A stretch of DNA of 64,000 nucleotides from an uncultured Chloroflexia bacterium (GTDB lineage: Bacteria; Chloroflexota; Limnocylindria; QHBO01): contig CAWGTN010000002.1 in assembly GCA_963825525.1 (NCBI GenBank), positions 672,001 to 736,000 of the forward strand, in the 5' to 3' direction. The position numbers and the translations under genes are program-made. This document shows, one piece after another, positions 38,106-49,853 of this stretch. Under the pieces are notes generated by a model. The model did no database searches and was not told the origin of the DNA. It saw only the letters and a program-made list of their open reading frames with translations. The number at the start of each line of letters is the position of its first letter. Positions within the stretch are counted from its first letter, which is position 1.

Positions 38106-38558
38106 TCAGCCGTCCCCCGCGATGAGGGCCGAGGGCACGGCGCAGGCGGACTCGCCGCCGAACTCGGCAGCGACCGGTGCCGGCGGTATCCGGCCGCGGC
38201 GACGCGGAGGCCAGTAGCGCCAGGCGACCACCCAGCTGATGCCGGACGCGGGCACCGCACCGAAGACGCGGCCATCCGTGCTCCAGGCGGGATTGTCGCC
38301 GCGCAGATCCACGCCCGAGGCGCGGACGCGCGCCACCCGCTTGACGATCTCGCGGGATGGCCGCCGAGGGTCAGTGACGACCACCACGTCTCCGGGGCGC
38401 GGTGGCCGTGCCCGTCGAACCAGCAGGAGTCGATCCCCCGGCGCGAGGGTCGGCAGCATCGAACGGCCGCGCACCTCGACGGTGTCGAGCCAACGCCGAG
38501 CGACCCATGCCACCGCGAGGACGAAGAGAGGCGCCACGGCGGCGCCTCTCCATCTCAT
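38106..38558 (-). CDS. sodX: Nickel SOD maturation peptidase (S26)
   Basis: GRSMLPTL, IVKRV, GDN..STDGR.FG; directly downstream of sodN. Confidence 0.9.
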   Translation of the reverse strand: MRWRGAAVAPLFVLAVAWVARRWLDTVEVRGRSMLPTLAPGDRLLLVRRARPPRPGDVVVVTDPRRPSREIVKRVARVRASGVDLRGDNPAWSTDGRVFGAVPASGISWVVAWRYWPPRRRGRIPPAPVAAEFGGESACAVPSALIAGDG

Positions 38559-38571
38559 CGGTGGCCGCCCG

Positions 38572-39003
38572 TCAGGAAGGGCGCCCGTTGACGCGGGTCT
38601 TCTCGAGGCCGCCCGTCGCCTTCCACATCTCATCGACGGTGTCGATCATGGCAAGCAGCTCCTTGGCGGCGCCGGCATCCAGGCTCTGCTTCACCTTGCT
38701 GGCCTGCTTGGTGGCCTTCCAGAATGTGTCGTGCAGGTCCGGGTACTTCTCGAGGTGCTCCGGTTTGAAGTAGTCGTGCCAGAGGACGTCGAGATGATGC
38801 TTGACCAGCTCGGCGCGCTCCTCCTTGACGTGAATGCATCGTGCGCGGAACAGGGCATCATCGCTGGCATCGTGCTTCTCGATGATCCGGAGGCAGGATT
38901 CGGCCTCGATTCGCGCCTGTTCGGGGTCATAGACACCGCATGGGATGTCGCAGTGGGCATCCACGATCCGCGCCGGACGCAGGATGGATCGGAGGGTCAG
39001 CAT
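38572..39003 (-). CDS. sodN: Nickel superoxide dismutase precursor
   Basis: Ni-hook HCDIPCGVYDP after a 16-aa propeptide; LWHDYFKP. Confidence 0.96.
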   Translation of the reverse strand: MLTLRSILRPARIVDAHCDIPCGVYDPEQARIEAESCLRIIEKHDASDDALFRARCIHVKEERAELVKHHLDVLWHDYFKPEHLEKYPDLHDTFWKATKQASKVKQSLDAGAAKELLAMIDTVDEMWKATGGLEKTRVNGRPS

Positions 39004-39087
39004 CGGTCTCCTCTCAGGTAAGGGCTTGCGTGCACTCGTGTTGTCATCTTAGGACGTTGCAAGCAGCCTGCCGAAGACCGCCCGTGA

Positions 39088-39843
39088 TCAGCTGCCCATC
39101 ACGATGCCGCCGTCGACCCCGAGCACCTGTCCTGTGACGTATCGGGCTTCGTCGGAGGCGAAATAGACGGCTGCGGCGGCGACGTCGTCGACCGATCCGA
39201 CGTAGCCGAGGGGCGTCATGTTCGTGAGCGCCTCGGTGGCCGCGACGGGCAGATCCGAGGTGAGGTCGGTGTCGATGAGTCCCGGCGCGATGGCGTTGCA
39301 GGTGATGCCGCGGCTCGCGAGCTCCCTGGCGGTGGTCTTCGTCAGTCCGATGAGTCCTGCCTTGGCGGCCGCGTAGTTCGCCTGGCCCGGATTACCCATC
39401 CGGCCGGCCGCGCTGGACATGTTGATGATCCGCCCCGCGCGGGCCTTCATCATCGGGCGGGCGATCGCGCGCGTCATCCAGAACGGGCCACCCAGATTGG
39501 TGTCGATCACGGCGTCCCACTCCTCGGCGTCCATCCGAACGAGCAGATTGTCCCGGGTGATCCCGGCATTGTTGACGAGGATGTCGACGGATCCGAGGGC
39601 GTCGATGCCGCCCTTCACGATCGCGTCACACGCCTCGCGACCGCCGCTGGTGTCACCCTGGATGGCAACGCCCCGGCGGCCGAGTGCGGCGATCTCGGCG
39701 ACCACGTCGTCGGCCGCCTCCTGGTTCCCCCGATAGTTGACCGCGACATCGGCACCCTGGCGGGCAAGGGCCAGCGCGATCGCCCTCCCGAGTCCCCGAC
39801 TGCCGCCGGTGACCAGCGCCGTCTTCCCCGTCAGGTCGAACAT
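39088..39843 (-). CDS. fabG: 3-oxoacyl-ACP reductase
   Basis: TGGSRGLG, NNAGITRD, GQANYAAAK. Confidence 0.95.
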   Translation of the reverse strand: MFDLTGKTALVTGGSRGLGRAIALALARQGADVAVNYRGNQEAADDVVAEIAALGRRGVAIQGDTSGGREACDAIVKGGIDALGSVDILVNNAGITRDNLLVRMDAEEWDAVIDTNLGGPFWMTRAIARPMMKARAGRIINMSSAAGRMGNPGQANYAAAKAGLIGLTKTTARELASRGITCNAIAPGLIDTDLTSDLPVAATEALTNMTPLGYVGSVDDVAAAAVYFASDEARYVTGQVLGVDGGIVMGS

Positions 39844-40913
39844 CAGGCTGAGGCCCTTTCGAGCTCGCGCTGCGGCTGGCCGAGCCGCGTCTGCGAGCCG
39901 GGAGCCAGGAACGCGCGCGCCGGATCGGCCGTCCACTCGACGACGGCGGCGCCGGCCGTGTAGCCAGCTCCGAAGGCAACCATGAGGATCGTGTCGCCGG
40001 GCTTGATTCGGCCGGCGGCCACGGCCTCCACCAGTGCCATGGGGACCGAGGCCGCACTCGTGTTGCCGTACTTCTCGATGTTGACGTACGTCTTCTCGGG
40101 CGGGATGTTGAGCTGCTTCTGGACGCTCGTGATGATCCGCAGGTTCGCCTGGTGGAAGACGAACTGGTCGACGTCGTCAACGGTCATGCCCGCGTTGCGC
40201 AGGGCCGCCACTGCGGACTCCCCCATCTGGCGGGTTGCGTACTTGTAGACCTCGCTGCCGAGCATCCGGATGGCGTGCTGGTGCGCGTCCACCGTCTCGT
40301 GGCTGGCGGGTCGCGCCGAACCCCCGGCCGGCATGATGATTCCCTCGCAGCCCGTCCCGTCGCTGAACAGGTCGAATCCCAGGAGCCCACCCTCCTTGTC
40401 CGAGGCCTGGAGGAGCACGGCACCCGCACCGTCACCGAAGAGGACGCACGTGCTGCGGTCGGTCCAATCCAGGAACCGGCTCAGCACCTCGACGCCGATG
40501 ACCATGACGTTGCGGTACATCCCGCTCCGGATGAAGCTGTGACCGGTGGCCAGGGCGTACAGGAATCCCGAGCACGCGGCCTGCAGGTCGAATCCCGATG
40601 CCCGCGTGGCCCCGAGCTCGGTGGCAACCAGGACGGCCGTTGCGGGCAGCGGGTAGTCGGGCGTGCAGGTTCCGACGATGATGAGATCCAGCTCGGAGGG
40701 CTGCAGGCCGGCAACCACCAGTGCATCGCGCGCGGCATGGACGGCGAGCGTCGTCGCCGTCTCGTCGTCGGCCGCGATCCGACGTTCGCGGATGCCGGTT
40801 CGAGACGTGATCCACTCGTCCGACGTGTCGACGATGGTGGAGAGCTCATCGTTCGTCATGACTCGCGACGGCGCGTACATCCCCCAGCCGCCGATCAGCG
40901 CATTGGTGGTCAT
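39843..40913 (-). CDS. fabH: 3-oxoacyl-ACP synthase III
   Basis: DTSDEWI, AACSGF, FGDGAGA, HQAN, GNTSAAS. Confidence 0.96.
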   Translation of the reverse strand: MTTNALIGGWGMYAPSRVMTNDELSTIVDTSDEWITSRTGIRERRIAADDETATTLAVHAARDALVVAGLQPSELDLIIVGTCTPDYPLPATAVLVATELGATRASGFDLQAACSGFLYALATGHSFIRSGMYRNVMVIGVEVLSRFLDWTDRSTCVLFGDGAGAVLLQASDKEGGLLGFDLFSDGTGCEGIIMPAGGSARPASHETVDAHQHAIRMLGSEVYKYATRQMGESAVAALRNAGMTVDDVDQFVFHQANLRIITSVQKQLNIPPEKTYVNIEKYGNTSAASVPMALVEAVAAGRIKPGDTILMVAFGAGYTAGAAVVEWTADPARAFLAPGSQTRLGQPQRELERASA

Positions 40914-40947
40914 CGTGGTGCTCCTTGAATGAACTCGGTGCCGAATG

Positions 40948-41415
40948 TCATCGGGGATCGATCTCGAGCAGTGGCTGCTTGCGCTTCACCAGCGTGCCCG
41001 GCTCGACCAGGATCCGGATCACGGTGCCTGCCGCGTCCGACTTGATCTCGTTGAAGAGCTTCATGGCCTCGATCAGGCCGACCACCTGGCCCTGCTGGAC
41101 GCGGTCGCCCTCCGCGACGTACGCCCGCGCGCCGGGCGACGGTGCGGAGTACCAGACCCCGGTGAGCGGCGCGCTCACGAATCGCATGCCGGGTGACGGC
41201 TCCCCGAATGGGGTGAGCTGCTCCGGCGCCCGTTCGGCAACCGGAGCGGGCGCGGGCGCGCTCGGCGCGATGGCTGCCGGCTCGACGGCCACGCGCGTTC
41301 GGGCAAGCCGAACGTGGAGGTCGTCGACCTCGATCTCGAGCTCATCGAGGCCTTCCTCGTCGAACGCGGGGGCAAGCAAGTCCACCGCCCGCAGAATGGA
41401 TTCCGGATCGCCCAT
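40948..41415 (-). CDS. accB: Biotin carboxyl carrier protein
   Basis: IEAMKLFNEI biotinylation motif. Confidence 0.93.
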   Translation of the reverse strand: MGDPESILRAVDLLAPAFDEEGLDELEIEVDDLHVRLARTRVAVEPAAIAPSAPAPAPVAERAPEQLTPFGEPSPGMRFVSAPLTGVWYSAPSPGARAYVAEGDRVQQGQVVGLIEAMKLFNEIKSDAAGTVIRILVEPGTLVKRKQPLLEIDPR

Positions 41416-42677
41416 CAGCGGTCGTACCGCCGGAAGACCACCGTGGCGTTGTGCCCACCGAATCCAAAGCTGTTGCTCATACCGATGGCCACCTCGGTCT
41501 GCCGAGCCTCGTGCGGCACATAGTCGAGATCGCACTCGGGATCCGGATGGTCGAGATTGATGGTGGGGGGCACGATCCCGGTCTTGATAGCCTGGATGGT
41601 GGCGATGGCCTCGATGCCGCCGCCCGCGCCCATCAGGTGACCCGTCATCGACTTCGTGCTGCTGATCGGCACCCGGTATGCGCCCTCGCCGAAGAGGGTC
41701 TTGATCGCTGCCGTCTCGGAGCGGTCGTTGGGGAGCGTGCTCGTGCCATGCGCGTTGATGTAGTCGATGTCGCCCGTCTCGACGCCCGCATCGGCGACGG
41801 CCACTCGCATGCTCTCGACCGCGCCACGACCTCCCGGCGCGGGGAGCGTGATGTGGGAGGCGTCGTCGGTCGCCCCATAGCCGACAACCTCGGCGTGGAT
41901 CGTGGCGCCGCGCGCCTTGGCGTGGTCGAGTGCCTCGAGCACCAGGATGCCCGCGCCGTCGCCCATCACGAAGCCGTCGCGCTCGGCATCGAATGGGCGC
42001 GATGCCTTCTCCGGCTCATGGTTGCGCTTCGTCGAGAGCGCGCGCATGGCGCTGAAGGCCGCGACCGGGATCTCGCCGATGCCCGCCTCCGCGCCGCCGG
42101 CGATCATGATGTCGGCCTCGCCGCGCCGGATGATGTTCATCGAATCACCGATGGCATGATTCGCGCTCGAGCAGGCGCTGACCGTCGCGTAGTTCGGACC
42201 CCGGGCATTGGCATAGATGGCGACGTATCCGGCGGCCATGTCGGGGATGAGCGCCGTCACCAGGAACGGGCCGATCCGTTCGACGCCGTGGAGCGCGGCC
42301 TCGGTGACGTCGCGGATCATCGTGTTGATGCCGCCGATTCCCGAGCCGATGATGCAGCCGGTGCGCCACGCCAGGGCGTCATCGGTGATCGGATTCTCGA
42401 TTCCGGCATCCCGCAGGGCCTCGGCCACGGCAGCCCACGCATAGTGGACGTAGCGGTCGTTGCGACGGACCTCCTTCTTCGGCATGACCGTATCGGCCTC
42501 GAAGCCCTTGATCTCGCCGGCGACCTTGCTGGCGGTCTTCACCGGGTCGAAGGTGGTGATCGGGCCGATGCCACTCCGTCCGTTCACCAGTCCGTCCCAG
42601 AATGCGGGCACGTCATTGCCGATCGGGGTCAGGGCGCCCATCCCGGTCACGACCACCCGTCGCTCGCCGTCACGCAT
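41415..42677 (-). CDS. fabF: 3-oxoacyl-ACP synthase II
   Basis: [35 protein letters not shown]. Confidence 0.96.
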
Positions 42678-43167
42678 CGGTCTGCCCTCCGCCCATCTCC
42701 TGGTCTCGCGGAATGATGATCGACAGCGTCGCCTCGACGGCCACCTCGCCGTCGACGCTGGCGATCCCCCGCACCCGACCGAACATGCCGCGCAGCTTCT
42801 CGACGTTGACCTCGAGCCGAAGGGTATCGCCGGGGATGACCATGCGCCGGAACCGACAGTCGTCGATTCCGGCGAACAGGCCGAGCTTGCCGCGGTACTC
42901 GGGGAGCGTCATCACCGCGACGCCCGCCGTCTGTGCCAGCGCCTCGACCATGAGCACACCCGGCATGATCGGCCTCCCGGGAAAGTGGCCGGTGAACTGC
43001 GGCTCGTTGGCCGTCACCGCCTTGAGCCCGACCGCCCGCCGCCCGGGCTCCAGCTCGACGATCCGATCGACGAGCAGAAACGGGTAGCGGTGCGGAATGA
43101 TGCCCATGATGTCGGCTGCCTCGAGGGGCAGTGTCGGGGTCTCGGTGGACGTGGTATCGGTCGTCAT
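42670..43167 (-). CDS. fabZ: 3-hydroxyacyl-ACP dehydratase
   Basis: [26 protein letters not shown]. Confidence 0.96.
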
Positions 43168-43186
43168 CGGTTCGATTCGGGGCTCC

Positions 43187-44545
<1,359 letters not shown>

Positions 44546-44547
44546 GT

Positions 44548-45501
44548 CTATGCCGATGCCTGCACGGCAGCCGTGGTCCGCAGGAGATCGGCGGCCGCCT
44601 GGACGCTGGCCGCGTCGGTTGCGGGCAGCGCACGGATCTCGGGCGCGATGCGCTTCAGCATGCCGACGAGCGCGGACCCGGCGCCGCACTCGATCGCGAC
44701 GTCGACACCGGCTTCGGCCATTGCCTCTACGCTGCGCACCCACTCGACCGGCGATCGGACCTGCTCGGCCAGCAGGCGGCGGATGCGGTCCGCATCGGTG
44801 AGCAGCTCGGCACTGACGTTGCTGACGACCGGCACGCGGGCGTCGGACCACTCCTCCTGGTCGAACGCGGACGCGAGCGCGTCGGCAACCTCCGACATCT
44901 GCGGCGAGTGGAACGCTCCCGAGACCGGCAGCGGGACGATGCGCTTCGCCCCGGCGGCTCGCAGCGGCTCTTCCGCCGCCTCGAGCGCATCACGCATGCC
45001 GGAGATCACGACCTGGCCGGGCGCATTGTCGTTGGCGACCACCAGCTCGGTCGGCCGGCCCACGCTCGCCACGACCTCGTCGACCGAGGTGCGTGTCAGT
45101 CCGATGACCGCCGACATGCCGCCGCCCGTGCCGGCCTCGGCCATGAGTGCACCGCGTCGTGCGACGAGTCGCAGCGCCGCCGAGAAGTCGAGGACGCCGG
45201 CCGCGACGAGTGCAGCGAACTCCCCCACGGAGTGCCCGGCAACCACGCTCGGCCGGACGGGTGCCAGGGTGTCGAGGACGCGGTACGCGGCGATCGACGT
45301 GGTCAGCAGGCACGGCTGCGTCTGCCGGGTATCGGAGAGGCGCTCGGCCGGGCCATTCCAGCAGGTCTGGCTGACGGACCAGCCCAGCACGCTGTCGGCC
45401 TCGGCGAAGGTGTCGCGGGCGACATCGTGACGCTCGGCGAGCTCACGGCCCATGCCCACGACCTGCGACCCCTGCGGACTGAAGAGCAGCGCAACGCTCA
45501 T
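44548..45501 (-). CDS. fabD: Malonyl-CoA:ACP transacylase
   Basis: PQGSQ, GHSVGE, VSGAFHS. Confidence 0.95.
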   Translation of the reverse strand: MSVALLFSPQGSQVVGMGRELAERHDVARDTFAEADSVLGWSVSQTCWNGPAERLSDTRQTQPCLLTTSIAAYRVLDTLAPVRPSVVAGHSVGEFAALVAAGVLDFSAALRLVARRGALMAEAGTGGGMSAVIGLTRTSVDEVVASVGRPTELVVANDNAPGQVVISGMRDALEAAEEPLRAAGAKRIVPLPVSGAFHSPQMSEVADALASAFDQEEWSDARVPVVSNVSAELLTDADRIRRLLAEQVRSPVEWVRSVEAMAEAGVDVAIECGAGSALVGMLKRIAPEIRALPATDAASVQAAADLLRTTAAVQASA

Positions 45502-45965
45502 GCCCGCGCCGCCGCGTGCTCGAGCTCGAGCACCACCTGTCCGTACTCGACCGCCTCGCCACTCTCGGCCACCAGGTTTCGGACGGTGCCGCCCCGCGGG
45601 GCGCGAACGTCGTGCCGGATGCCGAGCATCTCGACGTGGCCCAGGGCATCCCCCTTCTCGACCTCGAGGCCCGGTCCCAGGCCATCGGCGTAGACGAAGA
45701 ATCCGACGGCCGGCGACGCGACCCCGACCGCTGCGGACTGCTCGGAGCGTGCGGCGGCCGGTTGGGCCTCACTCGTCAGCGAGTCGGCACCGGGTGCGGG
45801 GGCGCGGGTCGGCGCTCCGGCGGCGCGTGCGACGCGGAGCTGGAGGTCATCGGTGGAAACCTCGATCTCCCCCAGGCCATAGCGGGTCAGCCGCTCCGTC
45901 AGGGGTTTGACCAGCTCGGACGCAGCTCGTGCGATGGCCTCCAGCGCCTGCTCGTGATCCGTCAT
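45498..45965 (-). CDS. BCCP-like protein lacking the biotin-acceptor lysine
   Basis: BCCP N-terminal (LGEIEV...LRV), linker, SPAVGFF, G..V, VEMLG instead of EAMK, GEAVEYGQ. Confidence 0.85.
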   Translation of the reverse strand: MTDHEQALEAIARAASELVKPLTERLTRYGLGEIEVSTDDLQLRVARAAGAPTRAPAPGADSLTSEAQPAAARSEQSAAVGVASPAVGFFVYADGLGPGLEVEKGDALGHVEMLGIRHDVRAPRGGTVRNLVAESGEAVEYGQVVLELEHAAARA

Positions 45966-46960
45966 GCGCCTCTCTCGTTCTCGTCGTCGGCATCGTTGCT
46001 CGGCCAGATCTCACTCCAACGCGGGCGCCGTGGCACGCCGGGGAGGTGCAGGATGCGCCCGATCCGACGGCGCAATGAAGGCACCTCAGGATGACCGGAA
46101 CTGCTCGCATCCGTCTCGAGGAAGGCCCCCATGCCGCGCAGCCGAGCATAGCGGGTCGCCAGCAGTTCGGCCGTGTCCTGGTCTGACAGGCGTCGCATGG
46201 CCGAGATGATCGCGGCCTTCACCGCGCGGCCGGTGGCGGCATGATCAGTGTGTGCGCCCTCGCCGGGCTCGGCCACGATCGCGTCGACCACGCCGAGATC
46301 GACCTGGTCGTCGGCCGTCATGCGCATCGCCGCGGCCGCGGTTCGCGCCTCATCACGGGATCGCCACAGGATGGACGCGCAACCCTCCGGGCTGATCACC
46401 GAGTAGACGGCATTCTCGAGCGCCAGGACGATGTCGCCGACGCCCAACGCCAACGCGCCGCCGGAGCCGCCCTCGCCCAGCACCACGACCACGATGGGCA
46501 CCTGGAGCCCGGTCATGAGCTTGATGCTCGAGGCGATGGCCTCCGCCTGACCGCGCTCCTCGGCGGCCGGACCGGGAAAGGCCCCGGCCGTGTCGAGGAA
46601 GGTGACCACGGGCATGCCGAGCTTGTCCGCAAGGCGCATCAGGCGCTGAGCCTTCCGGAACCCCTCGGGATGAGGAGACCCGAAGTTGCGGGCGATGTTC
46701 GATTCGGTGTCGGTCCCCTTCTGGTGGCCGACGACCATGACCGGAACGCCATCCAGCGTGGCGGGTCCGCCGACGATGGCCGGATCCTCCCCGAACGCGC
46801 GATCGCCATGCAGCTCGAAAAAGCCGTCGAAGATGAGGTCGATCAGGTCCAGTGACCGGGGTCGCTGTGGGTGCCGAGCCAGTTGGACCCGACGCCAGGC
46901 GTCCTCGACCGCAGCCTCGGTCGCCGGGCCGGCTCGTTCGACGATCGGCGCGCCGGTCAT
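45962..46960 (-). CDS. accA: Acetyl-CoA carboxylase carboxyltransferase alpha
   Basis: ELHGDR, RNFG..HPEG.RK, AEERGQ, GEGGSGGAL, YSVISPEG. Confidence 0.96.
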   Translation of the reverse strand: MTGAPIVERAGPATEAAVEDAWRRVQLARHPQRPRSLDLIDLIFDGFFELHGDRAFGEDPAIVGGPATLDGVPVMVVGHQKGTDTESNIARNFGSPHPEGFRKAQRLMRLADKLGMPVVTFLDTAGAFPGPAAEERGQAEAIASSIKLMTGLQVPIVVVVLGEGGSGGALALGVGDIVLALENAVYSVISPEGCASILWRSRDEARTAAAAMRMTADDQVDLGVVDAIVAEPGEGAHTDHAATGRAVKAAIISAMRRLSDQDTAELLATRYARLRGMGAFLETDASSSGHPEVPSLRRRIGRILHLPGVPRRPRWSEIWPSNDADDENERGA

Positions 46961-47961
46961 CGGGCCTTCTCGGACGTGGCTTCGGGCACTGCGGGGCTGC
47001 CATTCCCGGCGGCCGGCGGCTGCTCGACGTCGATACCGATCGTTTCGCTCACGGCACCGCCAAAGCGTTCGGCGAAGCCGCTGAGGGCGCCGATCGGACC
47101 CCAGGGTCGCTCCTGCTGGCGCGGCTGTCCGTCATCGACGGCGGCCACCGGCAGCAAGCGAAGAAGCCGCGACAGGCTCGATCGCAGCTCGGGACGTGGC
47201 ACCACGGCGTCGACAAAGCCGTGCTCGAGGAGGAATTCGGCAGTCTGGAAGCCCTCCGGCATCTGCTCGCCGACCGTGTCGGACGCGACGCGCGCGCCGG
47301 CGAAGCCGATGAGTGCCTTCGGCTCGGCCACGATGACGTCGCCCAGGCTCGCGAAGCTGGCGAGCACGCCACCGGTGGTGGGGTCCGTCAGGACGGTGAT
47401 GAAGGGGACGCCGGCGGCGTCGAGGTGCACGAGCGGCGCGGTCGTCTTCGCGAGCTGCATGAGCGCCAGTGTTCCCTCCTGCATGCGCGCGCCCCCGGAG
47501 GCGCTGACGACGATCGCGGGAATCCGCTCCGTCACGGCCGTCTCGAAGCAGCGGGCCAGCTTCTCGCCTACGACGCTTCCCATGCTGCCGCCCATGAAGC
47601 GGAAGTCGAAGATGCCGATTGCCACCCGCTGCCCGTCGATCGAACCGATCCCCCACACCACGGCGTCGCGAAGGCCCGTCTTGAGGCGCGACGCCTCCAG
47701 CCGGTCACCGTACGAGCGATCGTCATGAAAGCCGAGCCGATCGACGGCCTCCAGACCGGCATCGCGCTCCTCGAAGCTCCCCGCGTCGAGCAGCAGATCG
47801 ATTCGCTCACCGACCGACATGCGGAAGTGATGACCGCACGATGGACACAGCCGCTGGTTGCGCTCGAGCTGCTTGTTGAAGACCTGCGCGTCGCAGGTCG
47901 GACATTTCGTCCAGGCATCGGATGGTGCCGCGCGCCGGCTGAATGGGAACTTGATCGGCAA
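46957..47961 (-). CDS. accD: Acetyl-CoA carboxylase carboxyltransferase beta
   Basis: CPTC/CPSC zinc finger, FMGGSMG, SGGARMQEG, DPTTGGV, GFAG.RV; TTG start inferred. Confidence 0.94.
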   Translation of the reverse strand: MPIKFPFSRRAAPSDAWTKCPTCDAQVFNKQLERNQRLCPSCGHHFRMSVGERIDLLLDAGSFEERDAGLEAVDRLGFHDDRSYGDRLEASRLKTGLRDAVVWGIGSIDGQRVAIGIFDFRFMGGSMGSVVGEKLARCFETAVTERIPAIVVSASGGARMQEGTLALMQLAKTTAPLVHLDAAGVPFITVLTDPTTGGVLASFASLGDVIVAEPKALIGFAGARVASDTVGEQMPEGFQTAEFLLEHGFVDAVVPRPELRSSLSRLLRLLPVAAVDDGQPRQQERPWGPIGALSGFAERFGGAVSETIGIDVEQPPAAGNGSPAVPEATSEKAR

Positions 47962-47980
47962 TCTCTTTCTCTCCGTCACG

Positions 47981-48352
47981 CTATCGATGAAGGAGCTTGT
48001 TGGCGATTGGCGCTCGGCGGTTGCTGCGCCACACCGCGTAGGCGGTGACCCCGACACCCACCGCCGACCCCACCGCGCCGGTGACGATCAGCCTGCCGGG
48101 ATGACGCAGCGCCCAGCCCACCGGGTCTCGCGATCCGCCGTTGGAGGCCAGGCGTGTGCCCAGCTGCGCCTCGAAACGCGGCGATGCAACGGGTGCGCGG
48201 AGGTTGTCGCGCAGATCGCTCGCGACGTCGAGCAGGTCACGCTGTTCGGGGTCGATGCGTGCCGAAGCCGCCGCTGCGGCCGGAGAACGGCCCGAGAGAA
48301 CGAGATCGACGGCGCGATCGAGGCGCTCGACGACCGACGGGGAATGGGTCAT
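47981..48352 (-). CDS. Small membrane protein, putative anti-sigma factor
   Basis: Follows an ECF sigma; L.DVA..L...P.P.F...L..RL pattern, single C-terminal TM. Confidence 0.65.
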   Translation of the reverse strand: MTHSPSVVERLDRAVDLVLSGRSPAAAAASARIDPEQRDLLDVASDLRDNLRAPVASPRFEAQLGTRLASNGGSRDPVGWALRHPGRLIVTGAVGSAVGVGVTAYAVWRSNRRAPIANKLLHR

Positions 48353-48363
48353 GACACTCTTGC

Positions 48364-48390
48364 TAACACCGGCGGGGCCGATACGTTACA
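48364..48390 (-). promoter_or_regulatory. Putative ECF-sigma promoter
   Basis: TGTAAC-17 nt-GTT, 12 nt before ATG 48352. Confidence 0.55.
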
Positions 48391-48426
48391 CGCCGCGCCG
48401 GATGCCGGCCACCGAGGCCGCTTCGC

Positions 48427-49011
48427 CTAACCTGGGCTCGGGTGCTCCTCGAGCAGGGCGGCCAGCTCGCGCAGCGCCCGATGCTGCAGCACGCGCACGG
48501 CACCCGGGCTGCGGTCGAGCACCTCCGCGATCTCCGTCGTGGAGAGACCATCCACGAATCGCAGCACGACCACCTGGCGGCGATCCGGCGCAAGCCGCCC
48601 CACGGCGGTCCGCAGCCGGCGCGCGTCATCGGCCTGGTTGGCCAGGCGAGCCGGATCGCTCGCGGCGGAGATCACGGCTCCCTCGTCGAGGGGGCCGGTA
48701 CGCTGCCGTGACCGCGCCCTGAGGGCGTTGACGAGCTCGTTATGAGCGATCCGAAACAGCCACGATCGAAAGCTCGATCCCGTATCGCGGAAGCCATGCA
48801 GGCCGGCCATCGCGGCGAGGAAGCTGCGCTCGGTCACGTCCTCGGCGTCGTGATGGTCGCCCAGGAGGTAGAACGCGTAGCCGTAGACCGGGTCGAGATA
48901 CCGGCGATACAGGGTTGCGAACGCGGCGCGATCGGCCTGCGCGGCGCGAACCGCCGGGAGGTCCGGGTCCCCCTCACCCCTGGGGCGCGCCGCGGGGCGT
49001 GTCGGGCTCAT
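48427..49011 (-). CDS. ECF sigma factor
   Basis: AFATLYRRY, DAEDVT, FRSWLFRIAHN, VVVLRF.DGLS..EIA. Confidence 0.92.
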   Translation of the reverse strand: MSPTRPAARPRGEGDPDLPAVRAAQADRAAFATLYRRYLDPVYGYAFYLLGDHHDAEDVTERSFLAAMAGLHGFRDTGSSFRSWLFRIAHNELVNALRARSRQRTGPLDEGAVISAASDPARLANQADDARRLRTAVGRLAPDRRQVVVLRFVDGLSTTEIAEVLDRSPGAVRVLQHRALRELAALLEEHPSPG

Positions 49012-49790
49012 GCGGGCGCACCGGCACGCAGTGCGACGATCTCCCCACCCGTGACCGTGACCGAGCCGGCCGCGGTCCGCACCACGAGCGCCCCACCCGC
49101 ATCGAGGTCGACGGCACGTCCACTGACGCGAGCGCCTCCGGCGTCGATCTCGACGTCGGTCCCGAGGGTCACGCACGCTGCCCGGTAGCGGTCCAGCGGG
49201 GAATGTCCGGCCTCCAGACGCACGATCTCGTCGTCGAGCGCGTCCAGCAGCCGGCCCAGCAGCGTTTCGCGGTTCAGCGTCACCCCGGCCTCCTCGGCCA
49301 GCGAGGTCGCGAGGTGCGCGATCTCCGGCGGCATATCCCGGCGCATCCAGTTCACGTTGATGCCGACGCCGATGACCGCGGTGGTGATCCGGTCACCATC
49401 GAGCTCCGTCTCGATGAGGAGGCCACCGATCTTGGCGCCGCTGCCCGAGACGAGATCGTTCGGCCACTTGAGGCCGATGGATGCCACCGACCCGCACGCA
49501 TCGCGCGCCGCCAGTGCCGCCGCCAATGAGATGAGCGACGCCTCCCGCGCGGCGATTCGCGGACGAACGCCGACGCTCACGGCCAGGTTGACGCCACCCG
49601 GCGACACCCAGGTCCGGCCACGCCGCCCGCGACCGGCGGTCTGAACTTCGGCGACCACGGCGCGGCCCTCCGCGTCGGGCTCATCGAGGAGGCGCCTCGC
49701 CCGGTCGTTCGTCGACCCGATGCTGTCGTGGACCTCGATTCCACGGCCCGCGCGCCGACGTGGTCGATCGGCGGTCTGCCACGGCGTCAT
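49008..49790 (-). CDS. birA: Biotin-protein ligase (no DNA-binding HTH)
   Basis: GSTND, QTAGRGRRGRTW, KWPND, KIGGLL, GVGIN. Confidence 0.94.
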   Translation of the reverse strand: MTPWQTADRPRRRAGRGIEVHDSIGSTNDRARRLLDEPDAEGRAVVAEVQTAGRGRRGRTWVSPGGVNLAVSVGVRPRIAAREASLISLAAALAARDACGSVASIGLKWPNDLVSGSGAKIGGLLIETELDGDRITTAVIGVGINVNWMRRDMPPEIAHLATSLAEEAGVTLNRETLLGRLLDALDDEIVRLEAGHSPLDRYRAACVTLGTDVEIDAGGARVSGRAVDLDAGGALVVRTAAGSVTVTGGEIVALRAGAPA

Positions 49791-49853
49791 GCGCTCACGA
49801 TACCGCCTCATTGGCCCGGTGAGCACGAGGCGGTGCGCTACACTCGCCGTCCC

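Follow-up and report, generated by a model that had tools for sequence, protein, structure and literature searches.

Non-biotinylated look-alikes of BCCP, the biotin carboxyl carrier protein, are currently viewed as a plant peculiarity, and the role of the plant BADC proteins is debated: they may act as 'glue' and/or as a brake, so that an inhibitor of acetyl-CoA carboxylase (ACC) is set against an assembly factor. In the portion of PMC11926652 available, BADC1-3 are BCCP homologues that lack the biotinylation motif, are ~25-30% identical to true BCCP and coexist with the functional BCCP of a multi-subunit ACC, and they are called 'unique to the plant htACCase'. Their binding to biotin carboxylase (BC) and BCCP has been shown experimentally, and they have been kept long-term as non-catalytic proteins.

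Among bacteria, the epsilon subunits of actinobacterial acyl-CoA carboxylases are not known to be BCCP homologues. They are presented in the same portion of PMC11926652 as small non-catalytic 'glue' for holoenzyme assembly, a role similar to the one proposed below for a carrier. Another bacterial accessory complex reduces the activity of a biotin-dependent carboxylase to which it binds; according to the excerpt of PMC13012033, the complex has an unrelated fold and sequesters the biotin of BCCP domains rather than mimicking BCCP. YqhY/RfaA of B. subtilis is an ACC-linked accessory protein encoded with accB-accC, but it belongs to the Asp23 family, is not a BCCP homologue and reportedly targets AccC for degradation (excerpts of PMC5437119 and bioRxiv 10.1101/2024.02.19.580884). 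No description of a bacterial lysine-less BCCP paralogue was found in the literature searched. A paper on Chloroflexus ACC, which has a fused BC-BCCP, does not mention lysine-less carriers (PMC11077971), and they are absent from the accessible sections of Lombard and Moreira 2011 (PMC3199775).

Here we analyzed a stretch of 64,000 nucleotides (the window; contig CAWGTN010000002.1) from a member of the class Candidatus Limnocylindria, phylum Chloroflexota. The window contains a combined ACC and fatty acid synthesis operon, in which a lysine-less BCCP paralogue, designated AccB*, is encoded in addition to a canonical AccB. The genes are listed below from high to low coordinates; (-) denotes the minus strand.

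49011..49808 (-): biotin protein ligase (PF03099, PF02237), ~1 kb upstream of the cluster
46957..48057 (-): accD, carboxyltransferase beta with Zn ribbon (PF01039, PF17848)
45962..46960 (-): accA, carboxyltransferase alpha (PF03255, 386 bits); stop overlaps the AccB* start
45498..45965 (-): AccB*, lysine-less BCCP paralogue, 155 aa (ORF; PF00364, 27 bits; family-versus-family hhalign; dN/dS)
44548..45501 (-): fabD, malonyl-CoA:ACP transacylase (PF00698); start overlaps the AccB* stop
43187..44545 (-): accC, biotin carboxylase, 452 aa (PF02786, PF02785, PF00289), starting 2 nt past the fabD stop
39088..43197 (-): remaining cluster, assigned by Pfam
42670-43197 (-): fabZ (Pfam)
41415-42677 (-): fabF (Pfam)
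40948..41415 (-): canonical AccB (type 2, fabF-linked), hairpin IEAMKLFNEIK (PF00364, 56.7 bits; TIGR00531, 104.8 bits)
39843-40913 (-): fabH (Pfam)
39088-39843 (-): fabG (Pfam)

Overlaps of 4 nt flank the AccB* gene on both sides. According to the ORF calls and the sequence, an ATGA is shared between its start and the accA stop (45962-45965), and another between its stop and the fabD start (45498-45501), in line with the coupling to both neighbors claimed in a preliminary description of this DNA. A purine-rich GAGAGAGG is located 5 nt ahead of the ATG. Gly115, which occupies the column of the biotinyl-lysine, is encoded by GGC (45621-45623), a codon two base changes away from AAR, and a single-base error is therefore excluded. 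Decay, a different genetic code and a frameshift were each weighed and dismissed, as table 11 gives an open frame, the start (MTDH/MSDE) is conserved and the glycine codon is GGC. Terminator-like sites did not exceed chance between 38500 and 49500, and Pfam detected no DNA-binding domain in the biotin protein ligase.

The preliminary description had also assigned AccB* a complete BCCP layout with a biotinylation hairpin devoid of lysine. This layout was recovered in full, with EMLGI in the place of IEAMKL, and the parts are delimited as follows.

45828..45965 (-): N-terminal segment, residues 1-46; helix 2-29 and beta-hairpin 33-38/41-46, homologous to the E. coli BCCP N-terminal segment
45732..45827 (-): Ala/Pro-rich flexible linker, residues 47-78; pLDDT 46-66, no secondary structure, length variable across the family
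45516..45731 (-): biotinyl-domain fold, residues 79-150, with 6 'thumb' residues missing (pLDDT 97-98; Foldseek)
45618..45632 (-): hairpin tip E112-M-L-G115-I116, Gly in place of the biotinyl-lysine

Homology to BCCP was evident at the level of sequence, profile and predicted structure. Residues 97-148 match PF00364 (Biotin_lipoyl) above the gathering threshold (27 bits versus 22.1). The best NCBIfam match is the BCCP model TIGR00531, at 37 bits below its equivalog cut-off of 115.2, and the true AccB of the window, at 104.8 bits, likewise falls slightly under this value. By BLASTP, AccB* is 28% identical to the window AccB (40948-41415; E 2e-9), with Gly115 opposite Lys119, while a phmmer search of PDB sequences aligned residues 18-146 to E. 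coli BCCP (4hr7_B), placing VEMLGI opposite VEAMKM. A comparison of the AccB* family with the AccB family using hhalign yielded a probability of 99.2% (E 2.9e-19, 134 columns). The best structural matches of the AF2 model in Foldseek were BCCP domains, namely 2ejf_C (TM 0.90), 4hr7_G (TM 0.84) and 1bdo (TM 0.82; rmsd 1.7 A over 76 columns). The N-terminal segment, modelled with pLDDT 78-90, was aligned to 4hr7_B residues 25-53, and its residues L31, E33, E35 and R44 are invariant among 30 diverse family members. Invariant in the same set are L114 and G115 at the hairpin tip, which in the model are flanked by strands 107-113 and 116-121.

A gap of 6 columns at the thumb position appeared in both the phmmer alignment with 4hr7_B and the hhalign alignment with the AccB family. 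Furthermore, xPxVG and the hairpin are 23 residues apart in all 18 class members parsed, versus 29 in lysine-bearing forms. As judged from these alignments, the thumb loop, which in ACC-type BCCP lies between the second strand and the hairpin, is absent from AccB* in the window's class. Akin to bacterial AccB (E. coli AccB; TIGR00531), AccB* thus has the three-part architecture, the fold, a C-terminus of the VEYGQ type and, as outlined below, the genomic slots efp-accB and upstream of accC, but it differs in the missing biotinyl-lysine, the 6 missing thumb residues and the low TIGR00531 score. The canonical AccB of the window ends in ...GTLVKRKQPLLEIDPR and is without VEYG, a peculiarity that had been noticed previously and was borne out here.

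Biotin protein ligases and lipoyl ligases modify the lysine at the hairpin tip. In AccB* this position is Gly, so that a lipoyl-lysine is also absent from the tip, and the matches to E2 and GcvH proteins were weak (NCBIfam, phmmer). Membership of the biotinyl/lipoyl domain family, together with a biotin protein ligase gene ~3 kb away, raises the possibility that AccB* carries biotin, lipoate or some other acyl group as a cofactor on a different residue. The only lysines of the protein are K20 and K104, neither of which is conserved, and the 30 diverse members contain no invariant or near-invariant lysine. Attachment at another lysine was rejected for this reason, and a cofactor on any other residue is scarcely credible. 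AccB*, with neither a hairpin lysine nor a conserved one elsewhere, is presumably not biotinylated.

The conservation of AccB* was then compared with that of its neighbors. In a profile-based count, Gly was found at the lysine column in 80/80 related genome loci and in 417 of the 440 database relatives (120/120, 130/150, 105/105 and 62/65 in the individual searches). The median dN/dS was 0.351 for AccB*, 0.288 for accB, 0.319 for fabD, 0.233 for accA and 0.154 for accC, values that are meaningful only as a between-gene comparison because GC-driven codon bias may lower dS. Fourteen positions are invariant among the 30 diverse members, although these are only 31-69% identical to the window protein. 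AccB* is present across the class sample (n = 301 genomes), including a family with reduced genomes of 1.0-1.4 Mb, in which a match was obtained in 12/12 genomes and both sequences read were without Lys. In 76 of the 80 loci accA lies directly upstream, the other 4 ending at a contig edge; on the downstream side fabD follows in 71, accC directly in 6 and a contig end in 3. The EAMKL of the canonical AccB was found in 55/80 loci, counted where the locus stretch extends to this gene. A decaying, functionless relic of a duplicated accB might be suspected from the score far under the BCCP cut-off and from the loss of both the catalytic lysine and the thumb. Such a relic is nevertheless very improbable, given the intact frame, the glycine fixed in all loci, a dN/dS like that of the neighbors, the invariant positions, the retention across the class down to its reduced genomes and the lysine-less forms of many further families described below. 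Decay is already contradicted by these conservation data, and the earlier statement that the gene is not obviously decayed held up.

Lysine-less carriers are not restricted to the window's class. Among 40 other Chloroflexota genomes read, the lysine-less copy was the best match in 29, with G, N, Q, R, S, M or A at the site, and lysine-less forms occurred in 14 other families. As the residue differs between families, the tip is possibly unimportant at the scale of the phylum. The named relatives of AccB* are almost all Chloroflexota, and an ESM Atlas look-up likewise returned Chloroflexota and PF00364. One record labelled Deinococcus sp. hints at lysine-less, efp-linked AccB in other phyla as well. 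Outside the class, in 6 genomes of 5 families, the lysine-less gene adjoins efp with no ACC gene adjacent, and the link to ACC there consequently rests on homology. The slot pepP-efp-X holds the lysine-less gene in 4 other families, 2 further cases being efp-linked, and the same pepP-efp slot holds a normal, lysine-bearing AccB in 4 lysine-only lineages. An X-xseA adjacency is common to one lysine form and one lysine-less form, and in the window's own genome 5 nt separate efp from xseA, no carrier gene lying in between. Judged by position, AccB* is orthologous to the primary AccB that other Chloroflexota carry beside efp. The preliminary description of a paralogue belonging to one ACC operon applies to the window, where AccB* does lie inside the ACC/FAS operon beside the true AccB, but it was too narrow, as the family extends through the phylum and is efp-linked elsewhere.

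A fabF-linked, lysine-bearing AccB was found in 14/14 lysine-less genomes examined (window included) and in 0/6 lysine-only genomes, although these tallies are kin-dependent and the genomes were hand-chosen. It had been asked earlier whether orthologues retain MK, as evidence against a lysine-less role. MK is kept only in lineages without the second, fabF-linked AccB, a distribution that explains the loss of the lysine and does not refute such a role. A tree built by quick search from the 151 columns of this short domain placed the fabF-linked AccBs on one side of a branch (SH-aLRT 93) and grouped all 50 lysine-less rows with 5 lysine-bearing rows (SH-aLRT 94). A single lysine-less clade was not rejected by the AU test (p 0.74). 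In the free tree the 5 lysine-bearing proteins, 2 of them Armatimonadota by name, were nested in the lysine-less group, which indicates that the lysine may have been lost repeatedly or that the short-domain tree is unreliable. From gene order and distribution we infer that a second, fabF-linked AccB took over catalysis and that, in lineages holding it, the original AccB would have lost its lysine and become a dead carrier. In Candidatus Limnocylindria, AccB* would subsequently have left the junction of efp and xseA for that of accA and accC.

The efp neighborhood raises the question of a role outside ACC catalysis. E. coli AccB reportedly autoregulates the expression of its operon through the N-terminal segment. 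AccB* might do likewise through its own segment with the four invariant residues, or might have an EF-P-linked function, as the position beside efp in the 6 genomes could suggest, the biotinyl-like domain serving as a generic interaction module. Yet the pepP-efp slot also houses lysine-bearing AccB, so that the adjacency is inherited and provides no evidence of an EF-P function. The relocation of the gene into the ACC operon in the window's class, and the preservation of the entire BCCP architecture and not of the N-terminus alone, further argue against a non-ACC role, which we regard as improbable.

In E. coli BCCP, the N-terminal helix and hairpin mediate contacts with biotin carboxylase and with further BCCP chains. 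According to the model, AccB* keeps these contact parts: the N-terminal helix and hairpin, the linker and the biotinyl fold with its rigidly conserved hairpin. We propose, with a probability of roughly 0.5, that AccB*, formerly the primary AccB, is retained as a non-catalytic, BADC-like subunit that sets the assembly or stoichiometry of ACC. Expression from a single, tightly coupled operon would keep its production matched to that of AccD, AccA, FabD and AccC; in the BC-BCCP subcomplex it would occupy BCCP places beside the true AccB and would there set the assembly or stoichiometry of the enzyme without a catalytic part. Its binding to BC and BCCP is putative, as is any effect on ACC activity.

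Although they carry no cofactor, the hairpin and the residues flanking it show tight conservation, as would be expected of a tip still docking in an active site. AccB* could hence be a pure decoy or brake, which competes with holo-AccB for the docking sites on BC and carboxyltransferase and lowers malonyl-CoA output, possibly modulated by PII or by growth conditions; the BADCs, too, were first described as inhibitors (available parts of PMC12706156 and PMC11926652). However, translational coupling in mid-operon implies that AccB* is made constitutively with the very enzyme it would inhibit, the gene is retained in 1-Mb reduced genomes and no condition-specific control element was seen in the cluster (38500 to 49500). 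A brake is thus unlikely in our view. Nothing in the present data separates a brake from a scaffold.

An assembly or stoichiometry-setting subunit would resemble plant BADC in several respects. Both are BCCP homologues without the biotinylation motif at a comparable distance from true BCCP (28% identity for AccB*), and both coexist with a functional BCCP, here the IEAMKL AccB of the same operon (compare the cited portion of PMC11926652). Both have also been kept long-term as non-catalytic proteins. By analogy, AccB* follows the same evolutionary logic, that of a conserved, selected, lysine-less paralogue beside a true AccB. Unlike BADC, AccB* is bacterial, almost confined to Chloroflexota, operon-encoded and translationally coupled, and it is known from its sequence and predicted structure, whereas for BADC binding to BC and BCCP was demonstrated by experiment. 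The almost exclusive occurrence of relatives in Chloroflexota suggests that AccB* probably originated independently of plant BADC, and descent from BADC is unlikely.

A wider and more tentative reading, to which we give somewhat less than even odds, is that the Chloroflexota independently invented a BADC-like ACC subunit, a permanently apo, dead carrier that serves as a scaffold setting the number of live carriers per BC-BCCP complex. Included in these odds is the suggestion that the dead carrier is indispensable, being kept even in 1-Mb genomes. If true, mixing of live and dead carriers would be a general, convergent way to build or throttle multi-subunit ACC, open to study in a simple bacterial operon, and a bacterial family with the logic of BADC would mean that the arrangement evolved at least twice. 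The AccB* family, conserved across the phylum and in one class located between the genes for carboxyltransferase and biotin carboxylase, offers a system of four to five proteins, expressible in E. coli, for settling the question of the dead carrier. Public records widely give genes of the AccB* type the name 'acetyl-CoA carboxylase biotin carboxyl carrier protein', which is misleading for AccB*, since the real carrier in lysine-less genomes is the fabF-linked gene.

Ten close-set genes occupy the minus strand of the window from 48057 to 39088, in the order accD, accA, the gene for AccB* (a lysine-less BCCP paralogue; BCCP, biotin carboxyl carrier protein), fabD, accC, fabZ, fabF, accB, fabH and fabG. 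Neighbouring genes overlap by 1-11 nt or are separated by gaps of 2-34 nt, and no terminator-like or promoter-like site exceeding chance was found inside the cluster. The two carrier genes are:

45498-45965, minus strand: AccB*, lysine-less BCCP paralogue, 155 aa
40948-41415, minus strand: AccB, canonical lysine-bearing carrier

ATGA overlaps join the AccB* gene to accA on one side and to fabD on the other. Its product matched Pfam Biotin_lipoyl with 27 bits (cut-off 22.1), and the top NCBIfam match, the BCCP equivalog, scored 37 bits where the cut-off is 115.2. In the alignment with AccB (28% identity, E 2e-9), Lys119 is faced by Gly115. E. coli BCCP, as present in the BC-BCCP crystal structure, aligns to residues 18-146 with its EAMKM motif opposite EMLGI, and two 3-residue stretches of the E. 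coli thumb are missing from AccB*. The only lysines of AccB* are K20 and K104. The open reading frame, the overlaps, the domain matches and the Gly-versus-Lys alignments therefore bear out every element of the lysine-less BCCP paralogue noticed in the preliminary description. The true AccB also scores slightly under the TIGR00531 cut-off (104.8 versus 115.2 bits).

An AlphaFold2 model of AccB*, built on 30 family members, reached a mean pLDDT of 84.8. It comprises a helix (2-29) and a beta-hairpin (33-38/41-46) in the N-terminal part, a disordered linker (47-78) and a biotinyl domain (79-150, pLDDT 97-98), in which the tip L114-G115 lies between strands 107-113 and 116-121. Foldseek searches with this model ranked BCCP domains first (1bdo, rmsd 1.7 A over 76 columns; 2ejf_C, the thumbless P. 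horikoshii BCCP, TM 0.90; also 4hr7_G and 9a87, Arabidopsis BCCP1). The window's true AccB was modelled less confidently (pLDDT 68.2) with an identical architecture, whose tip is M118-K119. When the two families were compared as profiles, the alignment (99.2% probability, E 2.9e-19, 134 columns) covered the N-terminal segment and showed a gap of 6 columns at the thumb. The spacing from the xPxVG motif to the hairpin was 23 in 18 of 18 parsed AccB* members of the window's class, and 29 in all ten lysine-bearing type-1 (efp-linked) forms, 17 of 18 fabF-linked AccBs and 14 of the 19 lysine-less proteins from other classes that could be parsed; 18 unparsable rows stand outside these counts. Judged from these spacings, the loss of 6 thumb residues is a trait specific to the window's class. 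AccB* retains every contact-making feature of BCCP and has lost the carrier residue; it is presumably not biotinylated. Its N-terminal segment would permit entry into the BC-BCCP subcomplex beside AccB.

A word-indexed protein search with AccB* returned at least 1677 relatives at E <= 1e-3 from 8000 scored candidates; identity was 64-96% in the top 120, which, where named, came from Chloroflexota or Candidatus Limnocylindria. An exhaustive representative search yielded 1669 clusters at E <= 1e-3, of which 146 reached E <= 1e-10. In four sets of relatives, profile alignment served to read the lysine column. Glycine was found in 120/120 of the best word-indexed matches, in 130 of the 150 top-ranking representatives (K 9, R 2, S 1; 8 fragments miss the column) and, in two further sets, in 105/105 and 62/65, the other three being fragments. 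A genome scan matched 599 stretches, 333 of them encoding a relative; 80 loci were kept, all with a Gly-type ORF (EMLGV 47, EMLGI 13, DVLGV 10, EVLGV 7, DVLGI 2, DCLGV 1), and in 55 an EAMKL AccB also lay inside the fetched stretch. A 30-sequence family alignment, in which the members share only 31-69% identity with the window protein, has 14 invariant positions, four of them in the N-terminal segment (L31, E33, E35, R44) and ten in the domain (V87, G88, G105, G109, L114, G115, G126, G136, E140, G142). None of its invariant or near-invariant residues is a lysine. Median pairwise dN/dS (Nei-Gojobori, pairs with dS < 1.5), trustworthy in this GC-rich group only as a between-gene comparison, was 0.351 for AccB* (67 sequences), 0.319 for fabD, 0.288 for accB, 0.233 for accA, 0.230 for fabZ and 0.154 for accC. 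A decayed copy was rejected on the grounds of the glycine in all 80 loci, the 14 invariant positions and a dN/dS like that of the neighbours; AccB* is under purifying selection as they are. The invariance of the Leu-Gly tip within the class suggests that the hairpin still docks at a site accepting only a small residue. In four loci (L063, L065, L071, L074) the lysine-less gene, and in some also its neighbours, is frame-shifted or split over two tblastn pieces, which look like assembly indel errors; each contains a Gly-type ORF piece.

All detected genes in the 80 loci follow the window's order. Immediately upstream of AccB* lies accA in 76, the remaining four starting at the AccB* gene; downstream lies fabD in 71, while three loci (L062, L074, L079) end at the gene. 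Six more distant loci (L072, L073, L076, L077, L078, L080) have accC directly after AccB*, which is the classical accB-accC arrangement. In the same six, fabZ is separated from fabF by about 750-1000 nt that match no protein of the window's cluster and may hold an extra gene. Four loci that keep the window's gene order and are 60-66% identical to the query bear titles naming foreign taxa (L010, L024, L027, L037; Steroidobacteraceae twice, Solirubrobacterales, Candidatus Binatia), probably through binning or labelling errors. A whole-genome profile search of the class gave a match in 301/301 genomes at E <= 1e-5, a tally including 12 unpublished genomes that were counted only. Since the class profile also matches true AccB, sequences from five genomes were inspected, and all five also encode an IEAMKLFNEI AccB. 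Family f4 (genomes of 1.0-1.4 Mb) matched in 12/12 and, as read in the inspected genomes, has VDVLGV-type proteins; families f2 and f5 carry a more divergent VQSLG form of AccB*.

Across the phylum, 235 of 401 sampled genomes (>=80% complete, E <= 1e-8, one unpublished genome counted only) had a match and 166 had none; entire families were without a match at this threshold, e.g. f9 (0/18) and f21 (0/9). The best match was inspected in 40 genomes outside the class, a non-random choice of list-top and family-spread picks from 21 family codes. The lysine was missing in 29 and kept in 11 (f69, f66, f51, f54, f83, f11, f15). In its place were Gly (f22, f27, f34, f48), Asn (f25, f10, f38, f29, f47, f33), Gln (f8, f18), Arg (f41, f10), Met (f33), Ala (f29) or Ser (f81), a variety which argues that no single residue at this site is required in general. 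Nearly all 40 retain the C-terminal VEYGQ-type ending. A lysine-less representative with an EALGI hairpin (P0260; 41% identity over 68 residues) is labelled Deinococcus sp., and the closest lysine-bearing representatives are labelled Armatimonadota; lysine-less AccB may therefore also occur outside Chloroflexota.

In complete or near-complete genomes of f22, f38, f25 and f14, Pfam matches gave the order pepP (M24 peptidase), efp, lysine-less gene, and no ACC gene adjoined the latter. The lysine-less gene is likewise efp-linked in two f18 genomes. In the Lys-only lineages f69, f66, f51 and f83 the pepP-efp slot is occupied by a normal AccB, and a carrier-xseA junction is common to a Lys form (f15) and a lysine-less form (f25). 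In the window's own genome (L155, C2:446000-452000) pepP, efp and xseA are contiguous; the efp-xseA gap is only 5 nt and contains no carrier gene, a slot filled by AccB or the lysine-less form in other Chloroflexota. Most likely, the AccB* gene was relocated to the accA-accC junction in the window's class. Because the gene lies outside the ACC operon in other classes, a role unrelated to ACC has to be considered; within the window's class the AccB* gene sits, translationally coupled, between those for the carboxyltransferase and for biotin carboxylase, and we regard such a role as quite improbable.

A quick maximum-likelihood tree (89 rows, 151 columns) was computed after two duplicates and three near-duplicates had been dropped, together with a row greatly extended at its C-terminus, two fused BC-BCCPs and one lipoyl E2. 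A branch with SH-aLRT 93 has the 19 fabF-linked AccBs to one side, and all 50 lysine-less rows formed one group (SH-aLRT 94) that also takes in five representatives bearing Lys; at the base, the efp-linked Lys forms showed no resolution. Constraining the 50 lysine-less rows together gave a likelihood 12.16 log units higher than the free search, and the AU test did not reject a single lysine-less group (p 0.74). Hence, the lysine may have been lost just once, which is compatible with the data at the moderate support that this short domain affords.

AccB* always coexists with a live carrier in the lysine-less genomes examined: a distinct type of AccB that bears the lysine (xEAMK[LVSI]FNE...) and has no VEYGQ ending was present in 14/14 (the window's own, G011, G044, G001, G004, G013, G477, G575, G396, G645, G356, G404, G370, G326), and the fabF-type AccB in 0/6 Lys-only genomes at E <= 1e-3, tallies from related, hand-picked genomes that describe a pattern and no statistic. 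This AccB adjoins fabF wherever the fetched stretch included its neighbours. One of the six Lys-only genomes contains a further small carrier that is of a different kind. The window's true AccB, also without a VEYGQ-type ending, belongs to this fabF-linked type, which is widespread in Chloroflexota.

The closest analogue of AccB* is plant BADC. The plant literature describes BADC as non-catalytic BCCP homologues, 25-30% identical to BCCP and without the AMKL motif, acting both as inhibitors and as 'glue' of the BC-BCCP subcomplex, and one abstract terms them 'unique to the plant htACCase' (PMC11926652; PMC12706156; PMC11889953). The likeness is one of 'works like', not 'is a', and membership of AccB* in the plant BADC clade is unlikely. 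We prefer to view AccB* as a structural or stoichiometry-setting subunit, with a probability of about 0.5, over a competitive brake, which we consider unlikely. The regulator likened to BADC in the preliminary description is upheld in part: the lysine-less paralogue, its purifying selection, its place in the ACC operon and the live AccB alongside stand, and the lysine-less gene is not peculiar to this operon, as it occurs across the phylum and elsewhere uses the efp slot. The bacterial carboxylase accessory proteins MSMEG_0435-0436 (KipA/KipI-like) and YqhY/RfaA have folds unrelated to AccB*. No bacterial lysine-less BCCP was found described in the full texts searched, outside which lie most subscription journals and all supplements, and an earlier mention is possible. 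AccB* is a new bacterial form of an already known protein type; its evolutionary history is clearer than first seen, and its mechanism can be tested directly.

Further genes flank the cluster:

48427-49176, minus strand: ECF-type sigma factor
47981-48352, minus strand: small ORF
38572-39003, minus strand: nickel superoxide dismutase (SodN; PF09055, 139 bits)
38106-38633, minus strand: S26/S24-type peptidase

The first two are located between accD and the gene for the biotin ligase. The small ORF could be an anti-sigma partner of the sigma factor; it overlaps the annotated 5' end of accD, whose start may thus be further downstream. SodN and its maturation protease, a usual pair, adjoin each other directly downstream of fabG. 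Elsewhere in the window's own genome (L156, C1:232500-238000), a separate acyl-CoA carboxylase cluster encodes a carboxyltransferase (516 aa), a biotin carboxylase (506 aa) and, as its own carrier, a protein of 155 aa; methylmalonyl-CoA mutase comes next, and the cluster probably represents a propionyl-CoA carboxylase pathway.
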